Source of the DNA: an uncultured Nitrospirales bacterium
GTDB lineage: Bacteria; UBA10199; JADGCS01
DNA length: 64,000 bases
Assembly (NCBI GenBank): GCA_964609965.1
Contig: CAZSTS010000003.1
Coordinates: forward strand, 67,260 to 131,259
Direction: 5' to 3'
Shown: positions 18,847-57,387 of the stretch, one piece after another
How the letters are laid out: every line of letters starts with the position of its first letter
Numbering within the stretch: the first letter of the stretch is position 1
The notes under the pieces: generated by a model
The model's database searches: none
What the model was told of the DNA's origin: nothing
What the model saw: only the letters and a program-made list of their open reading frames with translations
Translations under genes and position numbers: made by a program

Positions 18847-20325
18847 ATGACAGGTAGAAGAGTCATAGCTAAAAATACGATTTATAATCTTTTGGCGAGC
18901 GCTGTTTCGTATCCAGCGACAATCGTTATGACGATTGTTATGTCGCGAACACTCGCTCCCCAGAACTATGGGATTTGGTCTTTGTGCCTGGTTTACGGGA
19001 GTTTATCCCTAAGATTGGCTACAGCTGGTTTGTTGCCAGGGTGTGCGACCTACATGATGAAGGAGTTGTCTGTTGGGGGAGAAAAATCTCCTTTGCTTTT
19101 TTCGAACTTTATTGCCCTTGAAGCAGCTCTTATCTTTTTTGGTTCCATTATTTCTGTTTTGTGTGTTGGTTTTTTTTACAGTGATGCCTATCTGCTTTCG
19201 GCTCTCAAGATTGCTGTCCTTTATAATGTGATTCTTTCACTGAATAGCATATTCAACTATGTGTATCAGGCTCATGATGACATGAGGTCACGGTTTTTTA
19301 TGACGATCCTGACTGTTGGTGTGAATCTGACTAATCTTGTTATTTGGGCTATCTTTTTTCATGGTGTTCGCAGCTTATTGGTCATGAGTAGTTGTGTTTA
19401 TCTTTTTATTTGCACAACGCAATTTTTCTATGTTCAGAAAAAGTATAGGCTGTGGAAACCAGTCACTATAAAAATCAAGCATTGGTTTGGTTTTATCAAA
19501 AAGTCATTCTTTTTTGCTGTAAACTCGCAATTGCTGCCACTCTTTTTGTCAGTAGATGTTCTCATGCTGTCATGGCTTTCTACGACAGTGGAAATTGGGT
19601 TGTACCGTATTTCTTTCACCTATTTGACAATAGCCGCCGCTCTTCCTGCAGCTATGGGATGGGCTCTGTTTCCAATGTTAACGCGCCTGCAAAGAAATGG
19701 CACAGGGAACGTAGAGGCTGTGAGACACTATTTTCCTGTGGTCAAGGTTCATCTCTGTCTTGGAATACTCATTTCTCTTGGCTATTTCTCGTTTGCAGAC
19801 ATCTTTATCCCGTTTTTTTACGGAGAAGACTATCAGATGTCGGCCACTTTGCTTAAGGTTTTAAGTGTTTCTGTTTTCTTATCATTCATCTCAGCATCGT
19901 TTGCTGGTTATTTGAATACAGGAAATAGAGAGAAATTATCGAGTCTGGCTTTGGGGATGGGAGTGGTTTTAAATATCTTGCTAAATATTATTTTGATCCC
20001 AACACATGGAGCTATGGGAGCCGCGATTGCGACAGTCGCATCAGAATTGCTCCTCTGTGTTGTTTATGGATATGTTTTTTCCAGAGAGATTATTTCATGG
20101 AGAGAAGGGTGGATGAAGTTGACATTGGTGAGTGGTGCTTTCATGCTTCTCTTGGGTTGGATTGTGGTTTTTGTTGCAAAGGTTTCAATTATTTTGGGCT
20201 TTCTCGTTGCTATGGCAGGATCTCCTCTCATTATTCTTGTATCAAAGATCTACCCACAAGAATCTGTAAGTATATTCAAAAGTTTTTTAATAGAGATAAA
20301 AGGTTTATTACGATTAAGTCGGTAA
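18847..20325 (+). CDS. wzx: Wzx-type polysaccharide flippase (MOP superfamily) #1
   Basis: 492 aa, about 12-14 TM segments, polysaccharide-biosynthesis-protein family architecture. Confidence 0.7.
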   Translation: MTGRRVIAKNTIYNLLASAVSYPATIVMTIVMSRTLAPQNYGIWSLCLVYGSLSLRLATAGLLPGCATYMMKELSVGGEKSPLLFSNFIALEAALIFFGSIISVLCVGFFYSDAYLLSALKIAVLYNVILSLNSIFNYVYQAHDDMRSRFFMTILTVGVNLTNLVIWAIFFHGVRSLLVMSSCVYLFICTTQFFYVQKKYRLWKPVTIKIKHWFGFIKKSFFFAVNSQLLPLFLSVDVLMLSWLSTTVEIGLYRISFTYLTIAAALPAAMGWALFPMLTRLQRNGTGNVEAVRHYFPVVKVHLCLGILISLGYFSFADIFIPFFYGEDYQMSATLLKVLSVSVFLSFISASFAGYLNTGNREKLSSLALGMGVVLNILLNIILIPTHGAMGAAIATVASELLLCVVYGYVFSREIISWREGWMKLTLVSGAFMLLLGWIVVFVAKVSIILGFLVAMAGSPLIILVSKIYPQESVSIFKSFLIEIKGLLRLSR

Positions 20326-20328: not shown

Positions 20329-21786
20329 ATGAAAGTTTCAATTATTTCACCCCCCAAACCTAAGCACTATCGAAGATACAGATGGTATTTACGTGAACAC
20401 AATTGTGCTCAAGTACGTGGAGACGTCACAAACCCCTGCTTGGCACTTTCTATTGTAAGCACTCTTAGTTTGAATCATGAGATTGAGATTGCGTTTCTTG
20501 ATTTGCAACTTGAGGAAGGAAAGCCTGAGCAAGTATTTGAAAAACATCTGACTTCTTTTCAGCCAGACCTTGTTATTGTTTTGATGAGTGCCTATGCCAT
20601 TCAAGAAGAAAGAATGTATGCCGAAAAGCATCCTCTTACGGTCTCTGTTATCACACCAACAAATGTGAATCCCAAAGAAGCGATTGAACAGTACAGTTTG
20701 AAGTGCCCCTATTTTACATTTGGGTACGCTGTTGAGCAGAGCCTTGCTAGCTGTGTTCAGCTTTTTTTGGAAGGTCATCGGGAATTTTCTATCCCTGGTA
20801 TTTTTAAGAATGGTTCAACTGAAAATAAAGCGGTTCCTTGTGGCGAAGTTCAAGCGCCGCTCATGACCGTTAAAGGGCATGAGATTATTCAAACTGGTAA
20901 ATACCTTCGAACGCAGACAAAAACCCCTGTTCTTTATCTTTTTACTCAGAAAGGGTGTTTGTTTCATTGCATTTATTGCACTGTCGGGTCTGACCAGTAT
21001 CGTCTTGTGAGCGGTAATGCAGAAAAACTTGTTTCTCAAATAGCGTGGTTAAAAGAAAACTACAAATTTGATCAGATTGTCTTTCTTGATGCTGACTTTA
21101 TTGCTGACAAGAAATTTTTTAACGCTTTTGTTGAGGCTATTGTCCCACAAAACCTTCAAATCAGTTATAGTGCAAATTGCACGATCAACACTCTTAATGA
21201 GGCGACCATAGAAGGTTTGCTGAGAAGTGGGTGCCAAGAAATTCGTATTGGTATTGAAACTGTGAACAAGGACCTTCTCAAGGTGCTCAGAAAATCGTAT
21301 CAAGTAGATCGTGCTCGCGATATTTTATCACAGGCAAGACAAAAAGGGCTCAATGTTCTTTTGTATTTTACAACAGGGATACCAGGGGAGAATAAGGCAC
21401 ATTTACTCGAAAACATACACTTTCTACTAGATACAGGGATCAAAAAATTCACGAATGGCAATTTGTTTCCTATTCCTTCAACTGATTTTTATGCAAAATT
21501 AAAGCAAGAAAACAATCTCATAGAAAGTGATTGGCGCCGTTATTATCTTGGCAAAACCCTCACATACAAAAATGGTTCAAACATGTCCCTGCGTCGCTTA
21601 AAGACAATGCAATATTGGATGAGGGCTATGTACTATTTTCAAAGATTAACAGGTAAATCAGAGTGGGGGACTCCTAAAACAAATGTTCTCAATATTTTGA
21701 GTGAGGTTTTTGCAATAGGATTAAAATATTTTTATGATATCGGATCAGCAGTTAAGTGGCGGATTCGTTTGCTGGTGAGAGTGTGA
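20329..21786 (+). CDS. B12-binding-domain radical SAM enzyme (class B rSAM, possible sugar C-methyltransferase)
   Basis: CLFHCIYC CX3CX2C motif. N-terminal cobalamin-binding-like domain. Confidence 0.7.
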   Translation: MKVSIISPPKPKHYRRYRWYLREHNCAQVRGDVTNPCLALSIVSTLSLNHEIEIAFLDLQLEEGKPEQVFEKHLTSFQPDLVIVLMSAYAIQEERMYAEKHPLTVSVITPTNVNPKEAIEQYSLKCPYFTFGYAVEQSLASCVQLFLEGHREFSIPGIFKNGSTENKAVPCGEVQAPLMTVKGHEIIQTGKYLRTQTKTPVLYLFTQKGCLFHCIYCTVGSDQYRLVSGNAEKLVSQIAWLKENYKFDQIVFLDADFIADKKFFNAFVEAIVPQNLQISYSANCTINTLNEATIEGLLRSGCQEIRIGIETVNKDLLKVLRKSYQVDRARDILSQARQKGLNVLLYFTTGIPGENKAHLLENIHFLLDTGIKKFTNGNLFPIPSTDFYAKLKQENNLIESDWRRYYLGKTLTYKNGSNMSLRRLKTMQYWMRAMYYFQRLTGKSEWGTPKTNVLNILSEVFAIGLKYFYDIGSAVKWRIRLLVRV

Positions 21787-22659: not shown

Positions 22660-23475
22660 ATGATAGCCCTAAATGCCTTAAAAACAGTTCAATATAATGC
22701 TGTTGCCAAAACTCTTGATCTAAAACGACAGCATTCTTTTCTGGATGTTGGTTGTGCCACAGGCCGGCAATATATTTGCTTGGCAAAGAATACTTCCCGT
22801 GCTGTGGGAATTGATGTTAACGATGAAGCCATTTTAGCGACAAAGAAGCTGATTGAAAAGAAAAGACTAGGAAACATTGAAGCACAAGTTGTTGATGGAG
22901 AAAGCATTCCCTTTGCAGATCATGCATATGATCGTGTTCTTTGTGCAGATGTCGTTTCTATTGCCACTCACCCTGTTGGCCTTATCCAAGAATCCTTAAG
23001 AGTTCTCAAAAATGATGGCGCCTTAGTGATTTGTAATGGTACGGGCTATAAAACCATCCGAGATTTTTACCAATCCACTTCATTTTTTAAGAAATGTCTC
23101 AGATCAGTTTTATTAAAAATAACAGCCCTTCCCAAAACCTTGCTTCAGTTCTATCGCAGTCGCATTGCCAGAAACATTCAATTTTCAGATCAAGAATTGA
23201 TGCAAAGGTATGAGGATGTTGAGATTCATTTAGAGAGAGTGATTAAAGAATCTGGCGGTGTTGTTTGCAAAAAAAGACATAGTTTTTGTGGGCCCAATGA
23301 ATGGCTGATGGCCTGGATTCATCTGATAACTTGCGCTTTGAAGCTGCCAGTGAGCACAGTTAAATTTATTTCATTGGGTTTTTTGCCTTTGTTTCTTTTG
23401 TTGGAATTTCTGTTTTCAAAAAGGCAAGGGTTGTCAGTTATTTATTTAGTGAAGAAAAATTCTTCTTATGAGTGA
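22660..23475 (+). CDS. class I SAM-dependent methyltransferase
   Basis: LDVGCATGRQ motif I. Hydrophobic C-terminal segment. Confidence 0.7.
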   Translation: MIALNALKTVQYNAVAKTLDLKRQHSFLDVGCATGRQYICLAKNTSRAVGIDVNDEAILATKKLIEKKRLGNIEAQVVDGESIPFADHAYDRVLCADVVSIATHPVGLIQESLRVLKNDGALVICNGTGYKTIRDFYQSTSFFKKCLRSVLLKITALPKTLLQFYRSRIARNIQFSDQELMQRYEDVEIHLERVIKESGGVVCKKRHSFCGPNEWLMAWIHLITCALKLPVSTVKFISLGFLPLFLLLEFLFSKRQGLSVIYLVKKNSSYE

Positions 23476-24985
23476 ATTTATTGTTTCAATATTTCTCGTT
23501 TTTCTTTTACGACTCTTCTTTCCAGTTGTGTTCCTTTTGACTGGTCGTACAATGACGGCCTCAGATGGTGTGTCTCATATTTGTACCACTGTTCTCATGC
23601 GTCGAAATGGGCATAGGCCTTTTGTCCGTATGCCACGCACAGAACAAAGTGGAGAGAATTATCCATGGCTTTACTCTTGGATTCTTTCGTTTTTACCAGA
23701 GCGACTGATTATGTCAGTGAGTTTGTTGACAGGAACGGTTATAGATACTCTTCTTTATGGATTGTTGGTGTTTGTGATGAAGCAATCAGGTCTTGTCCCA
23801 TTCATTGATCAGAAGATTCTGTTTCTATTTGCAGCACTCTTTGTTTTTACCCCACATCTGACGCGATTAACAACAGGCCGGATTGTTCCGCGGCCAAGGC
23901 CTCTTGGCGTTTTGCTGGGAAATCTCTTGTTTCTTTTCTTGTGGAGCTATCTCAGCACTGATCTTTGGATATGGTACTGTGCAGCTATCTTAGTTTATGT
24001 CCCTCTTTGCTTAACGAGCAAGTTTGCAGTTCAAGCAGCAGTGAGTATTTCTGTTCTTTTAGGGATTTTTACTGGGAAGCTGTTGCTCTTAGTGTTTCCT
24101 GTTCTAGCTATTGGTTTCAGTGTTCTCATCACGTGGGGGCAAAGTTGGGTTTTGTTTGTTGGTCAAATTAGGCACTCTGTTGTGTATTGGAAGAAAAATT
24201 ATGAATTTGTGAGGGAGAAAAACACATTTACGTTTCCTCGCAAGATGAATCTTTCTGAAATAAAAAGATGTCTTTACGTTTATTCAGAAAATTCTTTTAT
24301 TTTGGTGTTAACGGGATTGCCTTTTTTGATCCCTTTATTTTTGCTTTATTTCCGTACAAGTCATCTCTTAGAGCCAAATGTTCAATATTTGTTTGTGTGG
24401 ATCATGGCAGCTCTTACAGTGATGCTAATGACGTCTTTTTGGAAATTCAAAGTATTTGGTCAGGCGGAAAGATATCTTGATTTCGCTTTATTCCCTTATT
24501 TTCTTCTTCTTTTTGCTTTTTACAGCCAGATGTCATCATTACTTTTAGTAGCTTTACTGGCTTATGGTTTCTTAATGTATATAATTCATCTCATAGTGCA
24601 TATTTATGCTTACGGCACACCAAAGGGAGAAGTCAGAAAGCAGATTGAAGGGTATCAGTGGTTGAATCGTTTTCAGGATGAGTTGAAGGTCATTTCGATT
24701 CCTTACACATTGTCTCGCTATGGGCTTATGTACACGAAACATGTTTACCCTTTTACACAGGGTATTCCTAAAGAAAGACAACATGAGTTTGAGTTGATTT
24801 ATTCAAAATACCCGTACCCTCCTCATGATATGAAAAGGACTATTGAACATTACAACATAGACTTTGTTGTGAAAAAGAAAAAGAAGCTTAAACAGATGTC
24901 ATTCCACCCTTTGGAAAACTGTGTTTTCGAGAATTCTGAAGTGGCTGTTTATGATGTCAGAGAAAATAAAACTGATGTTAATTGA
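23468..24985 (+). CDS. polytopic membrane protein (>=10 TM), possible Wzy-type polymerase or glycan-modifying membrane enzyme
   Basis: Hydropathy only. No recognisable soluble domain. Confidence 0.35.
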   Translation: MSEFIVSIFLVFLLRLFFPVVFLLTGRTMTASDGVSHICTTVLMRRNGHRPFVRMPRTEQSGENYPWLYSWILSFLPERLIMSVSLLTGTVIDTLLYGLLVFVMKQSGLVPFIDQKILFLFAALFVFTPHLTRLTTGRIVPRPRPLGVLLGNLLFLFLWSYLSTDLWIWYCAAILVYVPLCLTSKFAVQAAVSISVLLGIFTGKLLLLVFPVLAIGFSVLITWGQSWVLFVGQIRHSVVYWKKNYEFVREKNTFTFPRKMNLSEIKRCLYVYSENSFILVLTGLPFLIPLFLLYFRTSHLLEPNVQYLFVWIMAALTVMLMTSFWKFKVFGQAERYLDFALFPYFLLLFAFYSQMSSLLLVALLAYGFLMYIIHLIVHIYAYGTPKGEVRKQIEGYQWLNRFQDELKVISIPYTLSRYGLMYTKHVYPFTQGIPKERQHEFELIYSKYPYPPHDMKRTIEHYNIDFVVKKKKKLKQMSFHPLENCVFENSEVAVYDVRENKTDVN

Positions 24986-25676
24986 GATCACAGGCAGTTC
25001 TGGTGCAGGAAAAACAACTTTGGCACAGCGCCTAGCTGCTGAAATACAACGGCAGGGCAGGCAAGTGGTTCTTCAGCTCGATGCGGGGACTTCTTTGTTG
25101 TTACGATTCTTTCAAGAAATAAGGGGTTTGTGGGTCTTGTTAACAAGGCGCAAACAGTATTTTCATTTATTTAGATTTTGTTATTCTTATTCTTGGAAAC
25201 ATCGTGATGGCATCTTGTCGTGGATCACTATCCTGAGAAGTCTTTTAAGAAAAATCAGCATTGATAATTATTATCGAGCAAGGTCTCAGGGAGACACCAT
25301 CACCATCATTGATGAGGGATTACTTCATCTTGCTCATAATTTGTTTGTAACTTTAAAAGAGGATTCTCAAGATCAGGACATTTCAGAGTTTTTTCAGAAA
25401 ACGCTTTTTCCTGATCTCATAGTATGTGTTCAGGCTGATTTAGATCTTCTCAAAAAAAGAGGGGTTCAGAGAAAAGATCCTCCCCGAAGATTGCGCCACT
25501 CACATGAGTTGTTATTGTTTATTGAAAAGGCGCATGCTTTGTATGGGCGAATCATTCAGGATCCACGTTTTTTCAACAAGGCGTACATTGTTGATGCATT
25601 AGATTTAGATGAATCTCTTATTGAATCAACGTGTCAGAAAATTATTCAAAAAATTAGTCTGATAAATAAAGGTTAG
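24975..25676 (+). CDS. P-loop kinase, dNMP/deoxynucleoside-kinase-like fold
   Basis: Walker A ITGSSGAGKTT, IIDEG, and a PDLIVCVQADLDLLKKR lid-like region. The start could also be ATG 24951 or 24921. Confidence 0.5.
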   Translation: MLIEITGSSGAGKTTLAQRLAAEIQRQGRQVVLQLDAGTSLLLRFFQEIRGLWVLLTRRKQYFHLFRFCYSYSWKHRDGILSWITILRSLLRKISIDNYYRARSQGDTITIIDEGLLHLAHNLFVTLKEDSQDQDISEFFQKTLFPDLIVCVQADLDLLKKRGVQRKDPPRRLRHSHELLLFIEKAHALYGRIIQDPRFFNKAYIVDALDLDESLIESTCQKIIQKISLINKG

Positions 25677-25785
25677 GAATGCTTGTATTAGTTCAAAAAA
25701 CATTTCTCCAATTCAAAGAGAGCGGTATTATGTTTTGTCAGGAAATTGTTTGCGTATTATTGAGATTGGAATGTATTGTTGTCAC

Positions 25786-27186
25786 ATGTTTTCCAAGAAA
25801 AAAATTATAATATTCACCTTTTTTTGTTTACTGATTATCTTTGTTATTTTCCATGATTTGTTTCATGAGGGATTCTATCAATTGAAATGGCACTATAAAT
25901 GGAGGATTGTCGAAGCAATGCAAGAACAGGCCCCTGTCAGCGTAAACAATATTCTATCTCTAACAAAAGGATATGCTCAGGGAGGAATTGTTGTTGGTGG
26001 TGTTGCCTATTTGGCAGCGGATCAATCAAACTCCATTGCTTCGTTTGCCAAGCCCGCTGATTATCCTTTTGCAGCCTCCTTTCAAGCCGGTACGTTGATT
26101 CCAGTAAAAGAATATGGCTTTGAAGATACATATGATAGCACGCCACTGATCATGACAAGCTCGGATGGAAAAAAATTATTGATTATGCATGAATATAAGC
26201 AACAAAGATCAAAGGCCATTGATTTGGAAACTGGCGAAACAGAGTGGGTGAGTGATGCAAATCAACCAGGGCATTCTTTTTTTGGGTTTTCCTATTATAT
26301 TCGAAAAAATGAATCAGATCTTATTTTAGTTGAGGCAGATAATGGGTTGCATGCCATTTCACTTGATACGGGACAAACCGTTTGGTGGCTTGAAAGAGAG
26401 GGTGGGGCCACGCCGGCGGTCGACCAGAAACAAGGGATTATCTATTTTCAGTCCCGTGGACGGCTTGACAAGATTAATGCATCAACTGGGCAAGTCATTG
26501 TTTCAAAAAAGATCCATAGTTATACCAAAATTTATTCAACTGCCACCGTGCTTATTAACGATGCGAACGGATATAATGTTGCTACTTATTGGTACGGACG
26601 ACCTCTTTATCGATCCAGCCTGAAAATATTTGATGCAGATCTAAATTTAAAATGGGAAAAGGAGAAATTGGCAGGGGGGCCGAAGACAACGATTTCTTAT
26701 GGAAATGGAAGGATATATTTAGGATCAGGTGATTTTTCGTATCCTTATTCTCAAAATGATTCAAAATGGAAACATATTCGTGCTTATGATGTGAAAACAG
26801 GCAAGATCATTTGGACAAGAAGGTTGTCGTCATATGCTTACGATGATATTCCCAATGTCATTTATGTTAACGAATTTATAATAGCTGAAACTCAAAGTAG
26901 AAGATATTCGAATCATCTCATTTTTGTGCTCAATGCAAGCGATGGCAGTATTTTACAATTTTTAGATACAGGCTCTCCCGCAAGTAGTTGCGCTCCACCT
27001 CTTTTTTCTGGGGGGAGATTGTTGACTGGCAATCTTTTTACAGACAGTTTTGTTGTTGTTGAACTCGGATTGGGTGAGATAGTTGATTGGCGTGGCGCTT
27101 TTGGCGACCCACAGCTTCATCATATGGCTGCAGATTCAAAAGCTCTCACAAAGTTGTACGATAGCCCCAAAATCATGAGAGATTAA
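25786..27186 (+). CDS. PQQ-repeat beta-propeller protein with N-terminal signal anchor (BamB-like fold)
   Basis: Repeated beta-propeller blades (G.IYFQSRGRLDKINASTGQ, GRIYLGSGD, VKTGKIIW). Hydrophobic N-terminus IIIFTFFCLLIIFVIF. Confidence 0.6.
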   Translation: MFSKKKIIIFTFFCLLIIFVIFHDLFHEGFYQLKWHYKWRIVEAMQEQAPVSVNNILSLTKGYAQGGIVVGGVAYLAADQSNSIASFAKPADYPFAASFQAGTLIPVKEYGFEDTYDSTPLIMTSSDGKKLLIMHEYKQQRSKAIDLETGETEWVSDANQPGHSFFGFSYYIRKNESDLILVEADNGLHAISLDTGQTVWWLEREGGATPAVDQKQGIIYFQSRGRLDKINASTGQVIVSKKIHSYTKIYSTATVLINDANGYNVATYWYGRPLYRSSLKIFDADLNLKWEKEKLAGGPKTTISYGNGRIYLGSGDFSYPYSQNDSKWKHIRAYDVKTGKIIWTRRLSSYAYDDIPNVIYVNEFIIAETQSRRYSNHLIFVLNASDGSILQFLDTGSPASSCAPPLFSGGRLLTGNLFTDSFVVVELGLGEIVDWRGAFGDPQLHHMAADSKALTKLYDSPKIMRD

Positions 27187-27291
27187 TATATTATGTTTAT
27201 CGAAAAGAAGTTTTTTTGAGAAAAACAAAAGTCGATGTTGAAAAATTAGCTAAGAGTCTTCTCTCTTGCCAAAAACCTAAAATCGTAAAAT

Positions 27292-28761
27292 ATGACATTG
27301 CCACTTGTTGAAAAAATATTTTCTCAGTTTTCAGAATCTCGAATTTTCTTTTGTCACTTCAAAAGTAACAACAGGCTCAAGGAAGCGCTTGAGGGAGAAG
27401 GTGATCTTGATCTTCTCTTTCACAAAAAAGACAGAGCTGCTGTAGAGAGTGTTTTACGTGAGTGTGGTATTATTCGATTTGTCAGATCTTGTCAGGATTC
27501 CCCAGCAGATATTGAACATTATTATGGTTTTGATGCGAATACAGGAACATTTGTTCATTTTCATCTTTATTATCATCTTGTTACAGGAGGGGCTCTTCTC
27601 AAAAATCATCACCTTGCCTGCGAAAGGGAATTAATAAATCGCTCAAACAGTAATGAGTTGGTTCCAACGCCTTGGTTGCAGGATGAATACAGTCTTCTTA
27701 TCGCACGCAAAATGGTTGAATCAGCATCTCTGCTTGAATCAATATTTTTATGGCGTGAATATGATCATTTTTTAGCAGAGTTGATTTGGTTAGAACAGAA
27801 ATTAAAACAAACCTCATCATCTGAAAATGAGACAATCCCTTTATTAAAGGAAATACCTGAGTCTCTTTTTCGAGATGCTTCTTTAGCTTTCAAGAGTAAG
27901 AAATCTTGGTTGAAGAGACGAGAGCTAGGTAAGATGTTTTGTTATTTTTTGAAGCCATATCAAATTCGCAGTTCTTTTGTGGCTTCAGTCTCTCGTGTTT
28001 TGATTCTTTTGAAGAAAATATTTAAGAAGATTCAAAAAACAAATAAGCTTGTTATGCCACAATCAGGCTTGTTGGTGGCTATTCTTGGTCCTGATCTTTC
28101 AGGGAAGAGCACCCTCACTCAGGAATTGGGAAAAAAATTTAGCAAACACTTTCAAGCAAAAGTCATTCATTCTGGAAAACCTCCTGCGTCCTGTTTGACA
28201 TTTTTTCCTAGGTTATTTCGTCGTTTTTTGAGGTTGTTTTATCTCAATGAACGCGCTGTTGACGCCGCTAATAGAAAAATGCCAGCGATTATCAAAAAAA
28301 CTTCCCTTATTTTCGCTATTCGCTGTTGTGTGATTGCTTATGATCGAATGCGAGTGGTTAAAAAAGCAAGAAACAAGGTGCAAAAGGGTTGTTTGGTTTT
28401 CAGTGATCGTTATCCAGGCCGCATACTTGGAAGTCCTGATGGTCCTGAGATTAATTCTATGAGACCACAAAACAAAGTGGTTCAAATGCTTGGCTCCTTG
28501 GAAGAATGGCTTTATCATCGTGTCTCAAAACCAGATGTTGTTTTGAATTTGACGGTTTCTTTGGGTGTTGCAAGACAACGCAACGAATCTCGCTCAAAGG
28601 TAGACAAAGAGACAGATGAGTATCTAAAAAAACTTTATGTGGCTGATAAACAAGAAAGTATTGATGGATCAATTTCTCATACGATAAATACTGGGGACAA
28701 ACTGGATGAGACGCTTTTACAAGCTTGTTCTTGTGTATGGAAAGAATTGGAAAAGACATGA
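27292..28761 (+). CDS. two-domain protein: N-terminal domain of unknown function (weak NTase-like GEGDLDLLF) + C-terminal thymidylate-kinase-like P-loop domain
   Basis: Walker A ILGPDLSGKST, DRY motif FSDRYPG, PDVVLNLTVSLGVARQR lid, as in the dTMP kinase family. Confidence 0.5.
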   Translation: MTLPLVEKIFSQFSESRIFFCHFKSNNRLKEALEGEGDLDLLFHKKDRAAVESVLRECGIIRFVRSCQDSPADIEHYYGFDANTGTFVHFHLYYHLVTGGALLKNHHLACERELINRSNSNELVPTPWLQDEYSLLIARKMVESASLLESIFLWREYDHFLAELIWLEQKLKQTSSSENETIPLLKEIPESLFRDASLAFKSKKSWLKRRELGKMFCYFLKPYQIRSSFVASVSRVLILLKKIFKKIQKTNKLVMPQSGLLVAILGPDLSGKSTLTQELGKKFSKHFQAKVIHSGKPPASCLTFFPRLFRRFLRLFYLNERAVDAANRKMPAIIKKTSLIFAIRCCVIAYDRMRVVKKARNKVQKGCLVFSDRYPGRILGSPDGPEINSMRPQNKVVQMLGSLEEWLYHRVSKPDVVLNLTVSLGVARQRNESRSKVDKETDEYLKKLYVADKQESIDGSISHTINTGDKLDETLLQACSCVWKELEKT

Positions 28762-29918
28762 AAAAAGACATGAAAATTTTCTTTATTATTAATTGTACGT
28801 TTTCGGCATGGCTTTTTAGAAAAGGATTGATGCGAACTCTTGTGGAACAAGGGCATGATGTAACGCTACTTGCTCCCTATGATAGCAAGTATCAAGAACT
28901 GATCAGAAAAATAGGTGTAAAGTATGTTCCTTTGCATGTAGAACGTTTTTTTGGCCCTTTATCAGATATTAGGCTTTTTTTTAGATTGTGGAGACTTCTC
29001 AAAAAGCACCAGCCTGATGTTGTTCATAATTTTACAATTAAGCCAAATATTTATGGAACCTTTGCGGCTAGGTTAGCTGGGATTAAGAAGATTATTTGTA
29101 CGGTAACAGGTTTAGGCGACCTTTTTGTAGAAGGTGCTGGTTTTGGTCTTAAGCTCATGAGGGGGATTGCTTCATTCATGTATAAATGTGCCTTTGCCCT
29201 TTGTGCTAAGGTTTCTTTTCAAAATGATGATGATTTGAATTTCTTTGTGAACAAAAAAATCATTAAAAAAAATAAAGCTGTTCTTATACGTAGCTCTGGA
29301 GTTGACATGGTTGAATTTCATCCCAATGTGATTTCTTCCGAAAAACAATCTTGGATCAGGACTGAGTTAGGAATTGATGCTGACACGATTGTTGTGTCGA
29401 TGTTTGCAAGAGCGCATTGGGCCAAGGGTGTTCGTGAGTTTGTCGAAGCCTCAAAGCAGATCTCATCAAACAATAAAAAATATATTTTTCTGCTTGTTGG
29501 CTGGGTTGAAAGCGGTAAAATGTCTGTTCCCAAGGAGTATCTGCTGTCAGAGCAGTCTGTTTATTTTCAATGGATTGGCTTCAGGGAAGATGTCAGGAGC
29601 TATTTAGCTATATCAAATATTATTGTTCTTCCGTCTTACTATCGAGAAGGGATTCCACGAAGCCTCTTAGAAGCCATGGCTATGGGAAAACCCATTATCA
29701 CAACCGATAATATTGGTTGCCGAGAAATTGTAGATGATGGTGTGAATGGTTATCTTGTGCCCCCAAAGGATGTCCCAGCATTAAAAGAATCCATCTCAAA
29801 ATTACTTGATGATTCAAGTAAACGGGAGGCCTTTGGCAATGCTTCATTGGCAAAAGTTAAACGGGAATTTAGTGAGACTATGGTGATCGAGCAAACTTTT
29901 TCATTGCTGTATTCATAA
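28758..29918 (+). CDS. GT4 family glycosyltransferase
   Basis: EX7E region EGIPRSLLEAMAMGKPIITTDNIGCREIVDDGVNGYLV. Confidence 0.8.
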   Translation: MKKDMKIFFIINCTFSAWLFRKGLMRTLVEQGHDVTLLAPYDSKYQELIRKIGVKYVPLHVERFFGPLSDIRLFFRLWRLLKKHQPDVVHNFTIKPNIYGTFAARLAGIKKIICTVTGLGDLFVEGAGFGLKLMRGIASFMYKCAFALCAKVSFQNDDDLNFFVNKKIIKKNKAVLIRSSGVDMVEFHPNVISSEKQSWIRTELGIDADTIVVSMFARAHWAKGVREFVEASKQISSNNKKYIFLLVGWVESGKMSVPKEYLLSEQSVYFQWIGFREDVRSYLAISNIIVLPSYYREGIPRSLLEAMAMGKPIITTDNIGCREIVDDGVNGYLVPPKDVPALKESISKLLDDSSKREAFGNASLAKVKREFSETMVIEQTFSLLYS

Positions 29919-29957: not shown

Positions 29958-31280
29958 ATGCGATCCTTCACAAAAGACACAATCATAACAATGGGTACAA
30001 AAATTCTACAAATGGGATTAGGATTTTTGTCGTCCATTATTGTGGCGAGAGTTTTGGGCCCAGAGGGAAGAGGTGTTTATGCGCTTATCTTTTTGTTGCC
30101 ATCACTTCTTATTTTAACTTTTTCACTTGGTATCGAAAATGCAACTGTTTTCTATATTGGGAGAAAAAAATATGAACTTGGTGAGATTGCTGGGGCAATT
30201 CTTGTTTTTGCTGCTATTTTGGGAACTGCAGCAGTACTTAGCGGTTTGTTTTTTATTTATTTCTTTGGGGAGGTGGTCTTTCCCTCTGTAAAACAGATTT
30301 TCCTGGTTGTGACGCTCTTGTTTATTCCCTTTCAGTTCTATTTAGCCTTGCTTACGAACATGGTTTTAGGGCTAGGTAAAATTGGAAAATACAATTTTAT
30401 TGGGTTGCTGCAAGGTTTTTCTTTCTGTATTTTTAATATCTTTCTTTTGATTGCCTTAAAAATGGATCTTCCGGGAGCTATTGTTGCTTATTTTATTGCG
30501 ATTTTGATTACTTGTTCTTGGGCATTTTTTGTATGCAAAAAGGAAGGCATAAAAATCCGTTTTCCTTTTCATAAAAGAATTTACAAGGATTTTCTGTTCT
30601 TTGGTAGCCAGAATTACCTAGGCAGCTTAGGAACATTTTTTCATCTCCGGATTGATGTATGGATGATTAGCATGTTTTTATCTACACAGGCGGTTGGACA
30701 TTATTCCATAGCTGCAAAGCTTTCGGAAGAGGTATGGTTGGTTTCTCTTGCTGCTGCAACAATCCTTTTTCAAAGAGTTACAGCAGAGAGAGATGAGAAA
30801 AGGTTGAACAGTCTTACCCCGCGTGTTTGTCGAAACGTTTTATTTATCACTTTTATAATGGCTCTGGGTGTTGCTGTTTTGGCTCCATGTTTCGTTATCT
30901 GGTTTTATTCTGATATGTACATGGCCTCTATTTTGCCATTTCAGGTCTTGTTGGTGGCATCCCTTGCCTGGGCAGGGTCACGTATTCTTGGGAATGACAT
31001 GACAGGCCGTGGGAGGCCCATGATTTACACGGGGAGTACTTTTGCCTCACTTCTTGTCAATATTGTTCTCAACATTTTATTGGTTAAAAAATATGGCATT
31101 GCTGGGATAGCCGCAGCTTCTGCCATTTCATATACTTGTATGTTTCTTATTCTGCTAGCTTATTACAAAAAGGTTTCAGGAAATAGTGTCAGCAATATTA
31201 TTCTTATTAAAAGGGAAGATTTTACAATGTACAAGAATATTTTTTTGAGAGTGAAAGGTTTTTTTAAAAGTACGGGCTGA
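29958..31280 (+). CDS. wzx: Wzx-type polysaccharide flippase (MOP superfamily) #2
   Basis: 440 aa polytopic protein with the MATE-like polysaccharide-biosynthesis-protein pattern. Confidence 0.65.
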   Translation: MRSFTKDTIITMGTKILQMGLGFLSSIIVARVLGPEGRGVYALIFLLPSLLILTFSLGIENATVFYIGRKKYELGEIAGAILVFAAILGTAAVLSGLFFIYFFGEVVFPSVKQIFLVVTLLFIPFQFYLALLTNMVLGLGKIGKYNFIGLLQGFSFCIFNIFLLIALKMDLPGAIVAYFIAILITCSWAFFVCKKEGIKIRFPFHKRIYKDFLFFGSQNYLGSLGTFFHLRIDVWMISMFLSTQAVGHYSIAAKLSEEVWLVSLAAATILFQRVTAERDEKRLNSLTPRVCRNVLFITFIMALGVAVLAPCFVIWFYSDMYMASILPFQVLLVASLAWAGSRILGNDMTGRGRPMIYTGSTFASLLVNIVLNILLVKKYGIAGIAAASAISYTCMFLILLAYYKKVSGNSVSNIILIKREDFTMYKNIFLRVKGFFKSTG

Positions 31281-32206: not shown

Positions 32207-33058
32207 ATGTGGCAAGGAACATATAAAATTTGGCAGAATAAGGAGTTTTGTAAGCTATATGCTCAGACATCTCATCGCCAACTTCACGAATGTGGCTATA
32301 CCAAGGTTTTAGTCTCTCAACAAAAGTACCTTGGGAATACCACGTTGTATCTTTATAATCCTCTTTCATCTGATTGGACTCTTCCAGTAGATTCATTGGC
32401 TAAAGAACTAGGTGTGGCGCGAGTTTGGGCTTACTTGACTCAGCCGTGTTTGGAAAAAGAAGCCTTTCTCAAGGAAGAATTCCATACCACATTGATTCCA
32501 CTCCACGAAGGAGAGGAAAAATTATGGAAAAGAGTAGGTGATAAGACTCGAAACATGGTCCGTAAGGGAAAAAAGGCAGGTGTTGAGGTGTCTCTTGCAG
32601 AAACTCAGGAGGATTTTGAAGGTTGGTGGGCTGTGTATCATCAGCTTACGCAGCAAATAGGCTTTCAGTCACAGAATTATGATTTTTGTAAAAAGCTTTT
32701 TGAAACACCCTCTTTGTCAAAACTATTTGTGGCTCGTCTTGGTTCAAAAATCATCGGAGGCTGTTTTTTTCTGACAGATGATTATCCCTTGTATTGGTTG
32801 GGTGCCTTTGATCGTGCCTATCAAAAAACCTCAGCTGGGCATGTGACGATGTGGGAAGCCATGCTTTATTTCATGTCTCATGGGTGTTCTCTTCTTGATT
32901 TAGGTGGTATTTCGGTTGGGGAAACAGACGGTCCCTCACGATTCAAGAAGAATTTTGGTGGCGATCTTCAGAAGGCCTATATTTATGAATGGCCTGTATC
33001 AAAAATGAAAAACTGTTTTTTGAAAGTGGCAAGTAAACTTCGAACTTTTGCTAAGTGA
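32207..33058 (+). CDS. FemAB-family / GNAT-fold acyl- or aminoacyl-transferase
   Basis: 283 aa. FemAB-like and BioF2-like acetyltransferase pattern (WWAVYHQLTQ..., FVARLGSKIIGGCFF, LYWLGAFD). The wider FemAB-deacetylase-GT-Wzy-sugar-transferase-Wzz-Wza context resembles PEP-CTERM/exosortase EPS loci. Confidence 0.45.
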   Translation: MWQGTYKIWQNKEFCKLYAQTSHRQLHECGYTKVLVSQQKYLGNTTLYLYNPLSSDWTLPVDSLAKELGVARVWAYLTQPCLEKEAFLKEEFHTTLIPLHEGEEKLWKRVGDKTRNMVRKGKKAGVEVSLAETQEDFEGWWAVYHQLTQQIGFQSQNYDFCKKLFETPSLSKLFVARLGSKIIGGCFFLTDDYPLYWLGAFDRAYQKTSAGHVTMWEAMLYFMSHGCSLLDLGGISVGETDGPSRFKKNFGGDLQKAYIYEWPVSKMKNCFLKVASKLRTFAK

Positions 33059-34888: not shown

Positions 34889-36181
34889 ATGAAAAAAGTG
34901 CTGATTATTGGACATTTTTGGCCCTATCACCAGGGAGGTAGTAAGCGAATATTGGGCTTAGCAAAGTATTTAGCAGAGTTTGGTTGGAAGCCAACGATTC
35001 TTACTGGAAAATTGAATTCAGGAAAGCCAGAAATTGATATTCATTATATTGAAACAGAATCAGGTAATCGCATAGCTCAATTTAAACGTTTTTTTGGATT
35101 GGACAGCAAAAAAAGTATCCAAGCACAAATGGGCATTTCTGCACCTACCCGTGAGAAAGAGGGTTCTTTAAGCACGCGATTGGTCAAGATGGTTGAGGCG
35201 GTTGTGACATATCCAGATACTGAAATTGCTTGGAAAACTCATGCAATGAAAGCTGTCGAAAAATTGATGGTAGAGCATAAATATGATGCTGTCTTAAGTG
35301 TTTGGCCCATCACGGCACACATGATTGGTCATGAGATACATAAGAAATATGGTGTGCCTTGGTTTGTAGATTTTCCAGACATGTGGGCCTTCACGTATGC
35401 TTATCGGTATGGAGAGATAAGACGTTATTTTGACAAAAGGCTTGAAAGAAAAACAATGATTCCAGCGAAAACAATTGTCACATCTTCATGGCCACAATCA
35501 CGGTTGTTAGAAAAACTACACAAAAGAGAGCGTATCCATACGATTAAAATGGGCTATGATCCTGAGTATGAAAATAACCCGCCTATACCATTAACGGATA
35601 AATTTACGATTACCTATACAGGTGTTTTGTATGGAAAAGAACGAAACCCATACAAGTTTTTTGAGGCCCTAGCTTCTCTTATTCGAAAACGGCTCATAGA
35701 TCCCAAAGATGTTGACGTGAGGTTTTATGGAAAGTTTGAAGACTGGGTTCAAGAAGATATTGAGCGACATGGGCTGCAGGATATTGTGAAGCAATATGGC
35801 TCTGTTTCGTGGATGGACTGTTTACAAAGGCAAAGAGAATCCCAGTTGCTTTTACAACTGAATTGGGAAGACCCAAAAGAAAAAGGCGCTTACTCAGGAA
35901 AAATAGCTGAATACCTGGCTGCCTTTCGACCTGTGATTTCTGTGGGCGGGTTTGGTAAAGATGTTATGGAAGAATTGTTTATTGAAACAAACGTTGGTGC
36001 CTATTGTATTGATGTTTCCGAGACTGAAACAGCGTTATTAAACTATTACAATGAATTCAAAACTCATGGTTTTGTAGATTTTAAAGGGACATTAAATGCC
36101 ATTACGAGTTACAGTTATCGAGAAATGGCTGGTCAGTTTGCTAAAATATTAAACCAAGTAGAGGAAGGTAATCAGTGCTAG
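34889..36181 (+). CDS. glycosyltransferase (GT4-like, GT-B fold)
   Basis: N-terminal GG-containing domain (IIGHFWPYHQGGSKRIL). C-terminal KIAEYLAAFRPVI. Confidence 0.5.
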   Translation: MKKVLIIGHFWPYHQGGSKRILGLAKYLAEFGWKPTILTGKLNSGKPEIDIHYIETESGNRIAQFKRFFGLDSKKSIQAQMGISAPTREKEGSLSTRLVKMVEAVVTYPDTEIAWKTHAMKAVEKLMVEHKYDAVLSVWPITAHMIGHEIHKKYGVPWFVDFPDMWAFTYAYRYGEIRRYFDKRLERKTMIPAKTIVTSSWPQSRLLEKLHKRERIHTIKMGYDPEYENNPPIPLTDKFTITYTGVLYGKERNPYKFFEALASLIRKRLIDPKDVDVRFYGKFEDWVQEDIERHGLQDIVKQYGSVSWMDCLQRQRESQLLLQLNWEDPKEKGAYSGKIAEYLAAFRPVISVGGFGKDVMEELFIETNVGAYCIDVSETETALLNYYNEFKTHGFVDFKGTLNAITSYSYREMAGQFAKILNQVEEGNQC

Positions 36182-37539
36182 TTTTTGTTTGTATAGTCTT
36201 CTTTGGCTTGTGTTTCCTAGGGCTTGCGGCAACTCGACCAGGCCTTTGGAGCCGGCTTTACATCTTTTCGACTATCATTTTATGTGGCATGATCTATGAG
36301 CAAGTGAGTTTTATTGATGAATACTTGATGAATTGCGTGATTTTGGGAGGGTGGTTACTTTTTTCTCTTGGGATCATGGACACTACCCTTCTTCCACAAA
36401 ATAAACTCAGCCGATTGCACAGATTTCTTTTTTACACCCTTTGCTTTTACTTAGTTTTTCAGAGTGTTCGTGGTGTTTATCTGACTGACATAAGAAAACT
36501 GAGATGGGTTATTTATTTTCTCTCTATTGCGTTGAGTGCCTGGATGATATCTCGTAAATCCTATGCTCTTCCTCAAGGAGTTGATTTAGTAAGAGTTGTG
36601 ACCAAGTCTTTGTTTGCGTATTTTATTCTCTATCTTTTTTATGGTTTTACTGCCGAAATTCTTTTTGGCATGAGCTGGTCTGCTGGTCAAAATATTCTTT
36701 GGGGTGGTTCATCTTACGCCATTTTTCCTTCGCTCATAGCAATCCCTTTTAGCTTTATTTTAGCTAAATATGGAGAGCAGCAGGATCGCATGATAGCTTG
36801 GGCAACTCTCTTTTTAGTTGTGATTGCAGGCTTCTATTTTGATTCACGGGCTTGCTATTTTGTTATTCTAGCCTGTCTTGGGATCGTAGCGCTCAAACTT
36901 GATTTGAAAAGGTTAATAGTAATGGGTGTGTTCTTTTTTGCTGTGCTCCTCTTTTTTACACAATTTGTTTGGCCTGAATATCAGAACTTTGAATCCTTTT
37001 GGAGTACAAGTATTGCCTCAAGCAGCAACCTTCTTTGGAGTCAAGAAGTCTCAGACCTTAGGCCAGGCGATATTGGTCGGTTTGCGCACCTGCATCTTCT
37101 TCCAAAAATAGTGGCAAAACATCCTGATGTCTTATTATTTGGAACAGGTTATCGAGCTTCAGGTTGGTTAATTGGTCCGGGGCTTGCTGAAGTTTTTATG
37201 GAAATGGGAAAATTTGGTGCAGCCAAAAGCAATGCAGGTTATGAATCAACAGTTGGGATAATCAGTATTGCTCTCGAAACTGGATTGGTTGGGCTTTTCC
37301 TTTTAATGGCCAATGTACTATGCACACTAGTTTATGTTCTTCGAAAGTGTAAAGAAATCCAAACAAAACTTTTTTTGGGACTCATATTAACAGCTTCATT
37401 TTTCTGGTTATTTGTCACAAACCCAACAGATATGCCAATATATTTTCTTTTGATTATGCCTCATGGATTTTTATACGCCTTTGTTGATGGCAAGAATACA
37501 GCTCAAGAAATGAAGGGAGTAGAACTCCAAAATTCTTAG
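36175..37539 (+). CDS. O-antigen ligase/polymerase family (Wzy_C) membrane protein
   Basis: GTG start with a GAGGAAGG RBS. Polytopic, with a periplasmic loop carrying GTGYRASGW...ESTVGIISIALETGLVGL, a Wzy_C-like motif. Confidence 0.55.
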   Translation: MLVFVCIVFFGLCFLGLAATRPGLWSRLYIFSTIILCGMIYEQVSFIDEYLMNCVILGGWLLFSLGIMDTTLLPQNKLSRLHRFLFYTLCFYLVFQSVRGVYLTDIRKLRWVIYFLSIALSAWMISRKSYALPQGVDLVRVVTKSLFAYFILYLFYGFTAEILFGMSWSAGQNILWGGSSYAIFPSLIAIPFSFILAKYGEQQDRMIAWATLFLVVIAGFYFDSRACYFVILACLGIVALKLDLKRLIVMGVFFFAVLLFFTQFVWPEYQNFESFWSTSIASSSNLLWSQEVSDLRPGDIGRFAHLHLLPKIVAKHPDVLLFGTGYRASGWLIGPGLAEVFMEMGKFGAAKSNAGYESTVGIISIALETGLVGLFLLMANVLCTLVYVLRKCKEIQTKLFLGLILTASFFWLFVTNPTDMPIYFLLIMPHGFLYAFVDGKNTAQEMKGVELQNS

Positions 37540-48613: not shown

Positions 48614-48620
48614 TTTTAGA

Positions 48621-54483: not shown

Positions 54484-54556
54484 GCCGACCTAGCTCAGCT
54501 GGCAGAGCAACTGACTTGTAATCAGTAGGTCATCGGTTCGATTCCGATGGTCGGCT
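54484..54556 (+). tRNA. thrU: tRNA-Thr (anticodon TGT)
   Basis: Cloverleaf read manually: acceptor GCCGACC/GGTCGGC, anticodon loop CTTGTAA. Confidence 0.85.
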
Positions 54557-54601
54557 CAATAAGGCTGTTTTGATTATCAAAACGGTCTTTTGTTTATTCT
54601 C

Positions 54602-54684: not shown

Positions 54685-54725
54685 CAAAAAAGGTTTTTCT
54701 TATGAAAAACCTTTTTTACTTTATT

Positions 54726-56337: not shown

Positions 56338-56341
56338 GTTA

Positions 56342-57384: not shown

Positions 57385-57387
57385 AAA

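Follow-up and report, generated by a model that had tools for sequence, protein, structure and literature searches.

A pair of thymidylate-kinase-fold proteins, found in surface-polysaccharide clusters of many phyla, probably tailors a sugar polymer

What are two proteins with the fold of thymidylate kinase doing in the middle of a locus for glycan synthesis? In the window, that is, the whole 64,000-nucleotide stretch of DNA analysed here, three ORFs are present on the + strand, just where a sequence-only reading had placed them: a 233-aa soluble P-loop kinase of the thymidylate-kinase fold (K1; 24975..25676), an N-terminally anchored PQQ_2/BamB-type beta-propeller of 466 aa (25786..27186), and a 489-aa protein (K2; 27292..28761) that combines a nucleotidyltransferase-fold domain with a thymidylate-kinase-like domain. 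That reading had described the three as an island between glycan clusters, but they lie inside a single continuous glycan locus, encoded on one strand and spanning roughly 5.9-49.7 kb of the window, and their G+C content (0.36-0.40) is similar to that of the neighbouring genes. Upstream of K1, on the same strand, are genes for a SAM-dependent methyltransferase (22660..23475; Methyltransf_11, 3.4e-17) and for a polytopic membrane protein of 505 aa (23468..24985), a candidate polymerase with many hydrophobic segments and no Pfam or NCBIfam match, whose gene is overlapped by the start of K1 by 11 nt. On the other side, the + strand gene for a GT4 glycosyltransferase (28737..29918; Pfam Glycos_transf_1 and Glyco_trans_4_2) shares 25 nt with the 3' end of K2, and a Wzx-type flippase gene (29958..31280, +; Polysacc_synt, 2.6e-13) comes next. 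No flanking repeats or terminators were found around the K1-propeller-K2 region. Judging from the annotated ORFs of the window, the locus is of the Wzx/Wzz/Wza type, with two Wzx, one Wzz and one Wza-like protein, and neither Wzm/Wzt nor any other ABC transporter was found among them.

Both kinases carry the Walker A motif and the P-D-x14-R lid previously read from the sequence. In K1, whose start agrees with the start of the family alignment ('M-x-I-E-x-x-G'), Walker A is G7-SSGAGK13-T14-T15 (nt 24993-25019) and the lid is P146-D147-x14-R162, with R166 in addition, whereas in K2 the corresponding elements are G266-PDLSGK272-S-T274 (nt 28087-28113) and P414-D415-x14-R430, R430 being the lid arginine. 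The DRY-like motif that had been ascribed to both holds for K2 only (D372-R373-Y374; nt 28405-28413), because K1 lacks it and has in its place an invariant D113-E114-G115 (nt 25311-25319), which hhalign aligns to the DRY motif of K2. Thus, K2 has all three of the P-loop, the D-R-Y motif and the arginine lid of thymidylate kinases, whereas K1 has only the P-loop and the lid. The catalytic residues of all three domains are at least 90% conserved in 87 diverse sequences. Since the motifs are conserved in these full-length homologues and AlphaFold models both proteins with confidence (pLDDT of 86 and 91.5), the motifs are not chance occurrences. No transmembrane segment or signal peptide was found in K1 or K2.

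Structure comparison recovered the thymidylate-kinase fold for both proteins, which they share with thymidylate kinase (PF02223, TIGR00041) and with dNMP/deoxynucleoside kinases, but at a sequence identity of only 13-20%. Against the curated models, K1 and K2 score 31.8 and 23.9 bits for TIGR00041 (cut-off 83.25) and 22.1 and 16.9 bits for PF02223 (cut-off 27), and these matches come mostly from the P-loop only. All curated models remain far below their cut-offs, so K1 and K2 are most probably not dTMP or deoxynucleoside kinases of the housekeeping kind, the identity that would have undone the sequence-only reading. Compared with thymidylate kinase, K2 is marked by a long insertion after strand 2 and by the signature H-x-G-K-P-P, and profile alignment finds no counterpart in K2 of the segment that follows DRY in the former (S-x-x-Y-Q). 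The thymine-binding residues are not evidently retained in K1 and K2, and both are encoded within glycan operons, not at the locus where tmk is usually found.

The C-terminal thymidylate-kinase-like domain of K2 (aa 251-489; 28042..28761, +) is preceded by a domain of 250 aa (aa 1-250; 27292..28041, +) consisting of a nucleotidyltransferase-fold core and a helical region. The earlier suggestion of a weak nucleotidyltransferase-like GxGDLDLL motif here proved sound: the motif is G35-E-G-D38-L-D40-L-L and the fold is that of a nucleotidyltransferase. The domain carries H22-F-K24-S25-N26, G35, D38-x-D40 (nt 27403-27411), D81, H89, H91, K104 and E111, and the metal-binding D-x-D together with a third carboxylate (D38, D40 and D81) is kept in 83-86 of 87 homologues. 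The top structural match is MenT1, a tRNA-modifying toxin, and the domain shares both the fold and the carboxylates with a solved member of the MenT1/AbiEii and NTP_transf_5 (PF14907) group; PAPS synthase, CoA synthase and NadR also appear among the structural matches. However, its score for PF14907 (15.9 bits) is below the gathering threshold of 31.2, with 11 of 16 members of the K2 family matching this model weakly (best 1.8e-4), and at the sequence level no relative could be detected in the PDB. The domain also differs from that group in its own signature (C-H-W-K-S-N ... G-x-x-D-L-D-L-L ... H-x-H), in being fused to a kinase and in having no antitoxin or defence context.

The propeller, by comparison, is a lineage-specific gene between K1 and K2, outside the conserved module. 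Its mechanical ORF start is a TTG at 25735, whereas gene callers on the same contig begin the 466-aa protein at an ATG at 25786. The protein matches PQQ_2 above threshold (6.9e-13, 49.2 bits; cut-off 27.6), and the proposed membrane or signal anchor is supported by a single N-terminal hydrophobic segment (aa 1-31, mean Kyte-Doolittle 2.7). These features are shared with BamB/PQQ_2-type eight-bladed propellers, but by curated models the protein is neither a PQQ-dependent dehydrogenase (PF01011, 23.1 bits, cut-off 26.7; TIGR03075, 19.3, cut-off 480) nor BamB (TIGR03300, 29.2, cut-off 285; PRK11138, 20.6, cut-off 423). It belongs to a distinct family; its 41 homologues, 35-58% identical across phyla, occur in Paenibacillus, Planctomycetota and Armatimonadota, where they adjoin glycosidases or sensor kinases, in sugar-utilisation or two-component contexts, and no K1 or K2 was found near them in the contexts examined. 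The propeller stands beside the kinases only in the contigs of this organism, and none of the other K2 loci contains it. It may be a separate accessory that faces the periplasm in this one organism, perhaps for glycan processing or scaffolding.

The conserved unit is K1 and K2, not the trio that had been proposed. Relatives of K2 form 1,856 representative clusters (50%-identity clusters, E<=1e-30) from many phyla, nearly all of them about 480-520 aa long with both domains. The 80 genome loci came from Chloroflexota, Alpha-, Gamma- and Deltaproteobacteria, Cyanobacteria, Bacteroidota, Actinomycetota, Acidobacteriota and Planctomycetota. The usual direct neighbour of K2 is a K1 homologue. One immediately precedes K2 in 28 of the close cases, and in 14 further ones it is encoded within a few kb, in many instances separated by nothing more than a Wzx or sulfotransferase gene. 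Among divergent K2 genes, 15 are immediately followed by a K1-like gene. Fusions were observed as well, the best 150 representatives including five K1-K2, one K2-K1 and one tandem K2-K2 protein, and more than one paralogous pair can occupy a single locus.

Consistent with the proposed tie to glycan biosynthesis, the genes near K2 in 87 loci from many phyla encode GT4 glycosyltransferases (60 loci), Wzx (36), Bac_transf (25), epimerases/dehydratases (22), Wzc-like proteins (19), Wzy (13) and DegT (12). K1 and K2 were not found away from glycan genes, another outcome that would have undone the sequence-only reading. The GT4 that follows K2 recurs as a third member of the module in the closest subfamily and stands directly 3' of 23 of the 48 close (type A) K2 genes; GT4s adjoining K2 are more alike than other GT4s (median 122 versus 55 bits). 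The GT4 of the window is PglA-like: it matches PglA (PDB 8dqd) over its full length (residues 6-379, 3.5e-52), and both combine Glyco_trans_4_2 with Glycos_transf_1, but it passes the cut-off of no curated GT4 model. PglA itself is the Und-PP-diNAcBac alpha-1,3-GalNAc transferase, the type of enzyme that acts on an Und-PP-monosaccharide. A distant locus (L005) repeats the order deacetylase-methyltransferase-K1-K2-Wzx-GT4. Elsewhere, Wzx sits between K1 and K2 or adjoins them, with the order K1-Wzx-K2 in L034, L036, L042, L045 and L063.

One function put forward earlier was chain termination of the kind performed by WbdD, the terminator of the Escherichia coli O9a O-antigen, which phosphorylates the glycan in an ABC-transporter pathway and in which a eukaryotic-type kinase fold is joined to a methyltransferase and a coiled coil. 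What the two cases share is a kinase gene within a glycan locus. We find no support for this reading: K1 and K2 are P-loop proteins of the thymidylate-kinase fold, with neither a eukaryotic-type kinase domain nor a methyltransferase fusion, and they reside in a Wzx/Wzy-type locus with no ABC transporter among its annotated ORFs.

Given that K1 and K2 occur inside surface-polysaccharide clusters across many phyla, they probably tailor the sugar polymer. We infer that the module is dedicated to surface-polysaccharide synthesis of the Wzx/Wzy type. As to the chemistry, we favour, at a probability of roughly 0.4, a cytoplasmic module that would phosphorylate the lipid-linked repeat unit and elaborate the phosphate. 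At the cytoplasmic face, before flipping, K1, with Asp-Glu in place of Asp-Arg, would phosphorylate a hydroxyl of an undecaprenyl-diphosphate-linked sugar or oligosaccharide, the one on which the PglA-like GT4 builds. The DRY-bearing kinase domain of K2 might add or handle a further phosphoryl group, and its nucleotidyltransferase-fold domain could then attach a substituent to the phosphate, using a nucleotide-activated donor. The repeat unit would in this way gain an anionic decoration, linked by a phosphodiester or containing phosphate in some other form. Several observations point in this direction: the ATP-binding and lid residues are kept in both kinase domains, as are the three carboxylates in the nucleotidyltransferase-fold domain, and K1 and K2 travel together in operons that also encode glycosyltransferases, flippases, polymerases and priming transferases, an association that is constant across phyla in the 87 loci. 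The proposed order of kinase and then nucleotidyltransferase follows the precedent of PsmK and PsmN, in which a P-loop kinase is likewise combined with an uncharacterised nucleotidyltransferase-family enzyme, a phosphate ester being formed first and then used by a D-x-D enzyme (PMC6993621). In the pseudomycoidin lasso peptide pathway, PsmN is required for the addition of hexose to phosphoserine and needs its D-x-D motif (PMC6993621; PMC8498205). The substrate in that case is, however, a peptide serine, PsmK is of the HPr-kinase rather than the thymidylate-kinase type, and the likeness of PsmN to the K2 N-terminal domain appears to be at the family level only. Further points against this reading are that just half of the close K2 genes have a GT4 behind them, that the N-terminal domain of K2 stays below the PF14907 threshold with a tRNA-modifying toxin as its nearest structural match, and that residue patterns do not discriminate between sugars, lipid-linked intermediates, small molecules and nucleotides as acceptors.

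Alternatively, K1, the nucleotidyltransferase domain and the kinase domain of K2 might work one after another on a small soluble compound, with a kinase step, a nucleotidyl transfer and a second kinase step, yielding a nucleotide-activated, possibly 3'-phosphorylated donor for a separate transferase, be it a sulfotransferase, the PglA-like GT4 or some other enzyme, a possibility that we consider real if rather unlikely. The fusion of a nucleotidyltransferase to a P-loop kinase recurs in PAPS synthase, CoA synthase and NadR, bifunctional enzymes of cofactor pathways that yield soluble donors, not polymer modifications. Parallels are known in PAPS synthase, in the cytidine-diphosphoramidate route of Campylobacter capsules (the methyl-phosphoramidate route of Cj1415-Cj1418) and in a salvage-type nucleotide-sugar route. 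However, these bifunctional enzymes and Cj1415-Cj1418 have other nucleotidyltransferase folds, with no sequence match found and no curated model matching; PAPS synthesis takes one kinase, not two, and no pathway intermediate can be named. Sulfotransferase-like genes, present in 22 of the 87 loci (15 of 52 among those of at least 15 kb), often immediately adjoin K1 or K2 and lie between them in L009 and L034; this tight association in about a quarter of the loci fits donor synthesis at least as well as decoration, but no recognisable sulfotransferase was found in the 64-kb window or in about 70% of the loci. The close tie of the module to one GT4 subfamily may reflect use of the product by this GT4. 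The existence of a family of phosphonate clusters that have a thymidylate kinase and a nucleotidyltransferase of PF14907 as flanking neighbours of PEP mutase also favours donor supply (bioRxiv 10.1101/2021.04.07.438883).

It is improbable that K1 and K2 are regulatory or scaffold ATPases that bind nucleotides and govern or coordinate assembly, flipping or polymerisation, possibly through modification of a further biosynthetic protein and not of the glycan itself. The close adjacency of Wzx, the several paralogous pairs possible per locus and kinase folds that give no clue to the substrate would suit such a role, but the conservation of catalytic residues, including the nucleotidyltransferase carboxylates, argues against it, and Wzc-type tyrosine kinases, known regulators, coexist with the pair in 19 loci and are not replaced by it. 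We regard as very improbable an unrelated cassette, for instance a toxin-antitoxin or anti-phage system built from a MenT/AbiEii-like nucleotidyltransferase and kinase partners. Glycan loci are variable regions and the best structural match of the K2 N-terminal domain is a toxin, but the glycan association is constant across phyla, down to overlapping reading frames and shared synteny. The suggestion of an inserted cassette is likewise not supported, because there are no compositional, repeat or mobile-element marks, the genes overlap their neighbours, PADLOC returned no real match and no relative was found in 2.9 million viral contigs. Least probable is that housekeeping thymidylate or deoxynucleoside kinases lie here by chance: the fold and the weak model matches speak for it, but the sub-threshold scores, the low identity, the lack of DRY in K1, the additional 250-aa domain of K2 and its large insertion, and the invariable glycan context speak against it.

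The K1-K2 pair is an uncharacterised, widespread module, and culturable carriers of it exist, among them Methylobacter marinus A45, Devosia sp. Root436, Sphingomonas arvum and Calothrix sp. NIES-2100. Tentatively, K1, K2 and the following GT4 may represent a widespread, as yet unrecognised route of glycan phospho-elaboration, in which the kinases would phosphorylate a lipid-linked sugar and the MenT/NTP_transf_5-like domain would transfer onto the phosphate, or, in an alternative version, the module would make a PAPS-like 3'-phosphorylated nucleotide donor. Phospho-elaboration, if true, would be a non-canonical way to phosphodiester-linked branches. Either version, if true, would provide the first function for nearly 2,000 sequence clusters and for the nucleotidyltransferase family that stands beside kinases in lasso-peptide and phosphonate clusters.

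Three open reading frames (ORFs) lie on one strand within window positions 24975-28761, the outer two of which encode P-loop proteins. K1 (24975-25676, + strand; 233 aa, N-terminus MLIEITGSSGAGKTT) has a true Walker A motif and a third strand ending in an invariant D113-E114-G115, and also conserves H121-N122, P146-D147 and the lid arginines R162 and R166. K2 (27292-28761, + strand; 489 aa) consists of two domains, with a helical stretch separating the N-domain (residues 1-250; C21-H-F-K24-S25-N26, G35-E-G-D38-L-D40-L-L, D81, H89-x-H91, K104 and E111) from a kinase domain that carries Walker A G266-T274, H293-x-G-K-P-P, D372-R373-Y374 and P414-D-x14-R430. In each of the three domains, the residues of catalytic type are at least 90% conserved among 87 diverse sequences. 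The sequence-only reading had described both proteins as P-loop kinases of the thymidylate or deoxynucleoside type, which is borne out by the Walker A motif and lid arginines present in both and by the fold match to thymidylate kinase; the DRY-like motif that it assigned to both is present in K2 only, its place in K1 being taken by D-E-G. Neither protein contains a hydrophobic segment; both are soluble and should be cytoplasmic.

AlphaFold models based on the family alignments are confident for both K1 (pLDDT 91.5) and K2 (pLDDT 86.4, pTM 0.84). Staphylococcus aureus thymidylate kinase is matched by the K2-family profile (3.2e-11, with DRY aligned) and by the K1 profile (1e-5), and hhalign aligned K1 with the K2 kinase domain at 96.8% probability over 218 columns spanning the whole domain, with D-E-G placed over D-R-Y; judged by this alignment, the two are homologous along the entire domain. 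Pfam NTP_transf_5 was matched below threshold in 11 of 16 family members, and a PDB sequence-profile search with the K2 N-domain alone returned no solved relative. The folds place both kinases in the thymidylate-kinase class and the K2 N-domain in the pol-beta nucleotidyltransferase class, with neither protein passing any of the curated family thresholds tested. A housekeeping role as a dTMP or deoxynucleoside kinase was rejected on curated-model scores, motifs and genomic context: K1 and K2 score 31.8 and 23.9 bits against TIGR00041 (cut-off 83.25) and 22.1 and 16.9 bits against PF02223 (cut-off 27), most of this signal coming from the P-loop, K1 lacks DRY, and K2 is enlarged by an additional domain and a long insertion. 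The argument that the DRY arginine marks K2 as phosphorylating a phosphate rather than a hydroxyl was dropped, because deoxynucleoside kinases also have an equivalent arginine and because the second phosphate-binding arginine of TMK is not conserved in the 87-sequence set.

A word-indexed search recovered only 16 K2 and 18 K1 relatives, all at no more than 33% identity, and an exhaustive profile search for K2 retrieved 6,360 representative clusters (at 50% identity) with E<=1e-3 and 1,856 with E<=1e-30, nearly all of them 480-520 aa long and with the match extending across both domains in full. Scanning species-representative genomes yielded 80 loci with K2 relatives, the closest only 32% identical, in Chloroflexota, Alpha-, Gamma- and Deltaproteobacteria, Cyanobacteria, Bacteroidota, Actinomycetota, Acidobacteriota, Planctomycetota and other phyla; the plasmid collection contained only weak, partial matches annotated as hypothetical. 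The six-frame ORFs of all loci were searched with K1-family and K2-family hidden Markov models (HMMs), distinguishing close K2 genes (type A) from a more divergent subfamily (type B). Type A genes have a K1 homologue directly upstream in 28 cases and within a few kilobases in another 14, and most of those with no nearby K1 lie at contig ends; 15 type B genes are directly followed by a K1-like gene, and many loci hold both pair types. Among the best 150 representatives, five K1-K2 fusions, one K2-K1 fusion and one K2-K2 tandem were confirmed by both HMMs. K1 and K2 as a pair thus make up the conserved unit; the natural fusions indicate that the two proteins act jointly and predict that they would form a stable complex.

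Variations on this arrangement were observed as well. Two paralogous pairs, the close K1-then-K2 type and the divergent K2-then-K1-like type, occur in L008, L009, L010, L017, L033, L037, L039, L053 and L062, and the divergent pair often precedes a gene for a Gal-3-O-sulfotransferase-like protein or for a 520-aa protein with no Pfam match. Split forms of K2 were found in L057 (6026-7653), L067 (6046-7693), L075, L079, L081, L082 and L089: a stand-alone K2 kinase domain adjoins K1 in Oleiphilaceae and Photobacterium, and N-domain-only genes accompany separate kinase genes in Acidimicrobiales and Microthrixaceae. In five Pfam-checked loci (L034, L036, L042, L045 and L063), a Wzx flippase gene, joined in L034 by a sulfotransferase gene, lies between K1 and K2, and it is this position that the propeller occupies in the window.

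The propeller ORF (25786-27186, + strand) is best read from the ATG at 25786, the start chosen by gene callers on an identical metagenome contig, giving a 466-aa protein with a PQQ_2/BamB-type domain (6.9e-13) that scores far below the cut-offs of curated PQQ-dehydrogenase and BamB models. A single hydrophobic segment at its N-terminus (aa 1-31) agrees with the proposed membrane anchoring. Its family comprises 41 homologues (35-58% identity) from Paenibacillus, Planctomycetota and Armatimonadota, one of them encoded between a solute-binding protein and GH2 glycosidases and another beside a sensor kinase, with no K1 or K2 in either locus. Since no other K2 locus has a propeller homologue and these contexts lack K1 and K2, the propeller is an independent, lineage-specific addition, and the three genes, taken together by the sequence-only reading, do not form a conserved unit. 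That it acts in glycan processing is only a guess from the contexts of its homologues. Very large NHL/PKD/Flg_new repeat proteins, which are not homologous to the window propeller and constitute another extracytoplasmic beta-propeller-type partner, adjoin K1-K2 pairs in L006 (11495-15595), L009 (2253-5906) and about 20 other loci.

Every locus inspected is set in a surface-polysaccharide cluster, which ties the kinases to glycan genes as had been suspected. Neighbour families, for which six-frame ORFs were grouped by single-linkage clustering and then annotated with Pfam, include K2 itself (85 loci), GT4 glycosyltransferases (60), K1 (42), Wzx (36), NAD-dependent epimerase/dehydratase (22), Wzc-like proteins (19), Bac_transf (15 + 10), Wzy (13), DegT (12) and sulfotransferases (11); the counts are approximate, and those for GT4 and sulfotransferases come from K2-bearing loci only and are not a formal enrichment statistic. 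The commonest gene order is K1-K2-GT4, with GT4 directly following K2 in 23 of 48 type A cases and only 2 of 41 type B cases, and the K2-adjacent GT4s are closer to one another than are other GT4s (median 122 vs 55 bits). The window GT4 (28737-29918) matches the solved PglA structure over its full length (3.5e-52); PglA extends the first sugar linked to undecaprenyl-diphosphate. In roughly half of the close relatives the conserved module of K1 and K2 also takes in a GT4, which in the window is PglA-like. A distant locus, L005, shares with the window the order acetyltransferase, deacetylase, methyltransferase, K1, K2, Wzx, GT4 and methyltransferase.

The window contains one long single-strand glycan locus of roughly 44 kb, headed by a NusG/RfaH-like paralogue (5957-6436, + strand; PF02357, 3.5e-16) that looks like an RfaH-type operon-specific antiterminator; the housekeeping nusG is separate, at 57388-57930. 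The locus encodes two Wzx, several GT4s, one GT2, DegT aminotransferases, formyltransferases, a B12-radical-SAM enzyme, deacetylases, methyltransferases, a C5-epimerase-like protein and a PglC-like priming transferase, and ends with Wzz, a PglF-like dehydratase and a Wza-like export protein (48597-49745). The suggestion that the region is an inserted cassette finds no backing, nor does mobile insertion of the propeller alone: the G+C composition of 24975-28761 is like that of its neighbours, there are no flanking repeats and no terminator-like sites between the three genes, the upstream gene overlaps K1 by 11 nt, and the GT4 gene overlaps K2 by 25 nt.

Several other features of the window deserve mention. 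The B12-binding radical SAM enzyme (20329-21786), whose best NCBIfam matches (HpnJ and PhpK-type P-methyltransferases) are far below cut-off, adjoins a Wzx flippase, a deacetylase-like protein and a methyltransferase, and may carry out unusual C- or P-methylation of a sugar. The two Wzx-type flippases (18847-20325 and 29958-31280) stand in one operon-like array and are only weakly similar (3.5e-5); polytopic membrane ORFs with no Pfam match at 23468-24985 and 36175-37539 could be polymerases. Two glycans, or one glycan and a separately flipped modification, may be produced. A FemAB/Acetyltransf_6-like protein (32207-33058), three genes downstream of K2, matches TIGR03019, the PEP-CTERM-associated FemAB family, below cut-off (7.9e-13); this family also occurs near K1-K2 in L005, and the window protein may aminoacylate an amino sugar. 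Between the DegT/PglC-like genes and Wzz lies an alpha/beta pair of E1 dehydrogenase genes (thiamine-diphosphate enzymes; 43483-45439), unusual for sugar pathways. A GAF-GGDEF diguanylate cyclase (51533-53146), encoded about 1.8 kb past the Wza-like export gene, may provide c-di-GMP input into polysaccharide production. The standard block tRNA (Thr, Tyr, Gly, Thr)-tuf-tRNA-Trp-nusG-rplK/A/J follows at 54484-59801. With the exception of one small ORF, every gene of the window is on the + strand, and the GC skew stays positive throughout.

K1 and K2 are embedded with enzymes acting on lipid-linked intermediates at the cytoplasmic face, and we infer that the module would tailor the repeat unit in two steps, first transferring a phosphoryl group and then acting on that phosphate through the nucleotidyltransferase-fold domain of K2. 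For such a logic the nearest experimental precedent is pseudomycoidin, in which the kinase PsmK phosphorylates a serine and the D-x-D-dependent PsmN (Bacillus pseudomycoides DSM 12442), from an uncharacterised nucleotidyltransferase family, is needed for addition of hexose onto the phosphate (PMC6993621; PMC8498205). The main alternative is donor supply, with a kinase, a nucleotidyl transfer and a second kinase acting in series on a small molecule. In its favour, PAPS synthase, CoA synthase and NadR, which are all among the fold matches, are built as nucleotidyltransferase-kinase fusions, and one family of phosphonate clusters has a thymidylate kinase and a PF14907 nucleotidyltransferase on either side of PEP mutase (bioRxiv 10.1101/2021.04.07.438883). 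Sulfotransferase-like genes, present in 22 of 87 loci and often immediately adjacent, are likewise in keeping with donor supply, and their absence from the window and from about 70% of loci counts against it; an obligatory link to sulfation was discarded on the same counts.

Other explanations fit less well than tailoring of the repeat unit. Conservation of the catalytic residues weakens the view of K1 and K2 as regulatory ATPases, and a defence or toxin-antitoxin system was set aside because PADLOC gave no meaningful match, viral contigs contained no relative and the glycan context does not vary. WbdD-like chain termination, raised from the sequence at the outset, does not apply, since WbdD has another kinase fold and serves another export pathway; the window glycan locus has no Wzm/Wzt.

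Searches of the literature on PF14907, NTP_transf_5 and thymidylate-kinase-like proteins in polysaccharide loci found only the phosphonate-cluster remark and no description of a K1-K2 module, and no curated family model covers it. Non-sugar decorations account for much of the charge, antigenicity and phage or immune recognition of bacterial surface polysaccharides, and for many of them we know of no installing enzyme. We rate K1 and K2 as putative glycan-locus kinase and nucleotidyl-transfer enzymes, forming a module that is large (about 1,850 clusters at 50% identity), phylogenetically broad and tied together by natural fusions; carriers that can be cultured include Methylobacter marinus A45 (L038), Devosia sp. 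Root436 (L029), Sphingomonas arvum (L048), Calothrix sp. NIES-2100 (L033), Photobacterium lipolyticum (L067) and Pontibacter spp. (L070, L072), so its function is directly testable. Should the module install or supply a phosphate-linked group, it would represent a new enzyme class for glycan tailoring and would also offer a functional handle on the NTP_transf_5-like nucleotidyltransferases found beside kinases in peptide and phosphonate natural-product clusters.
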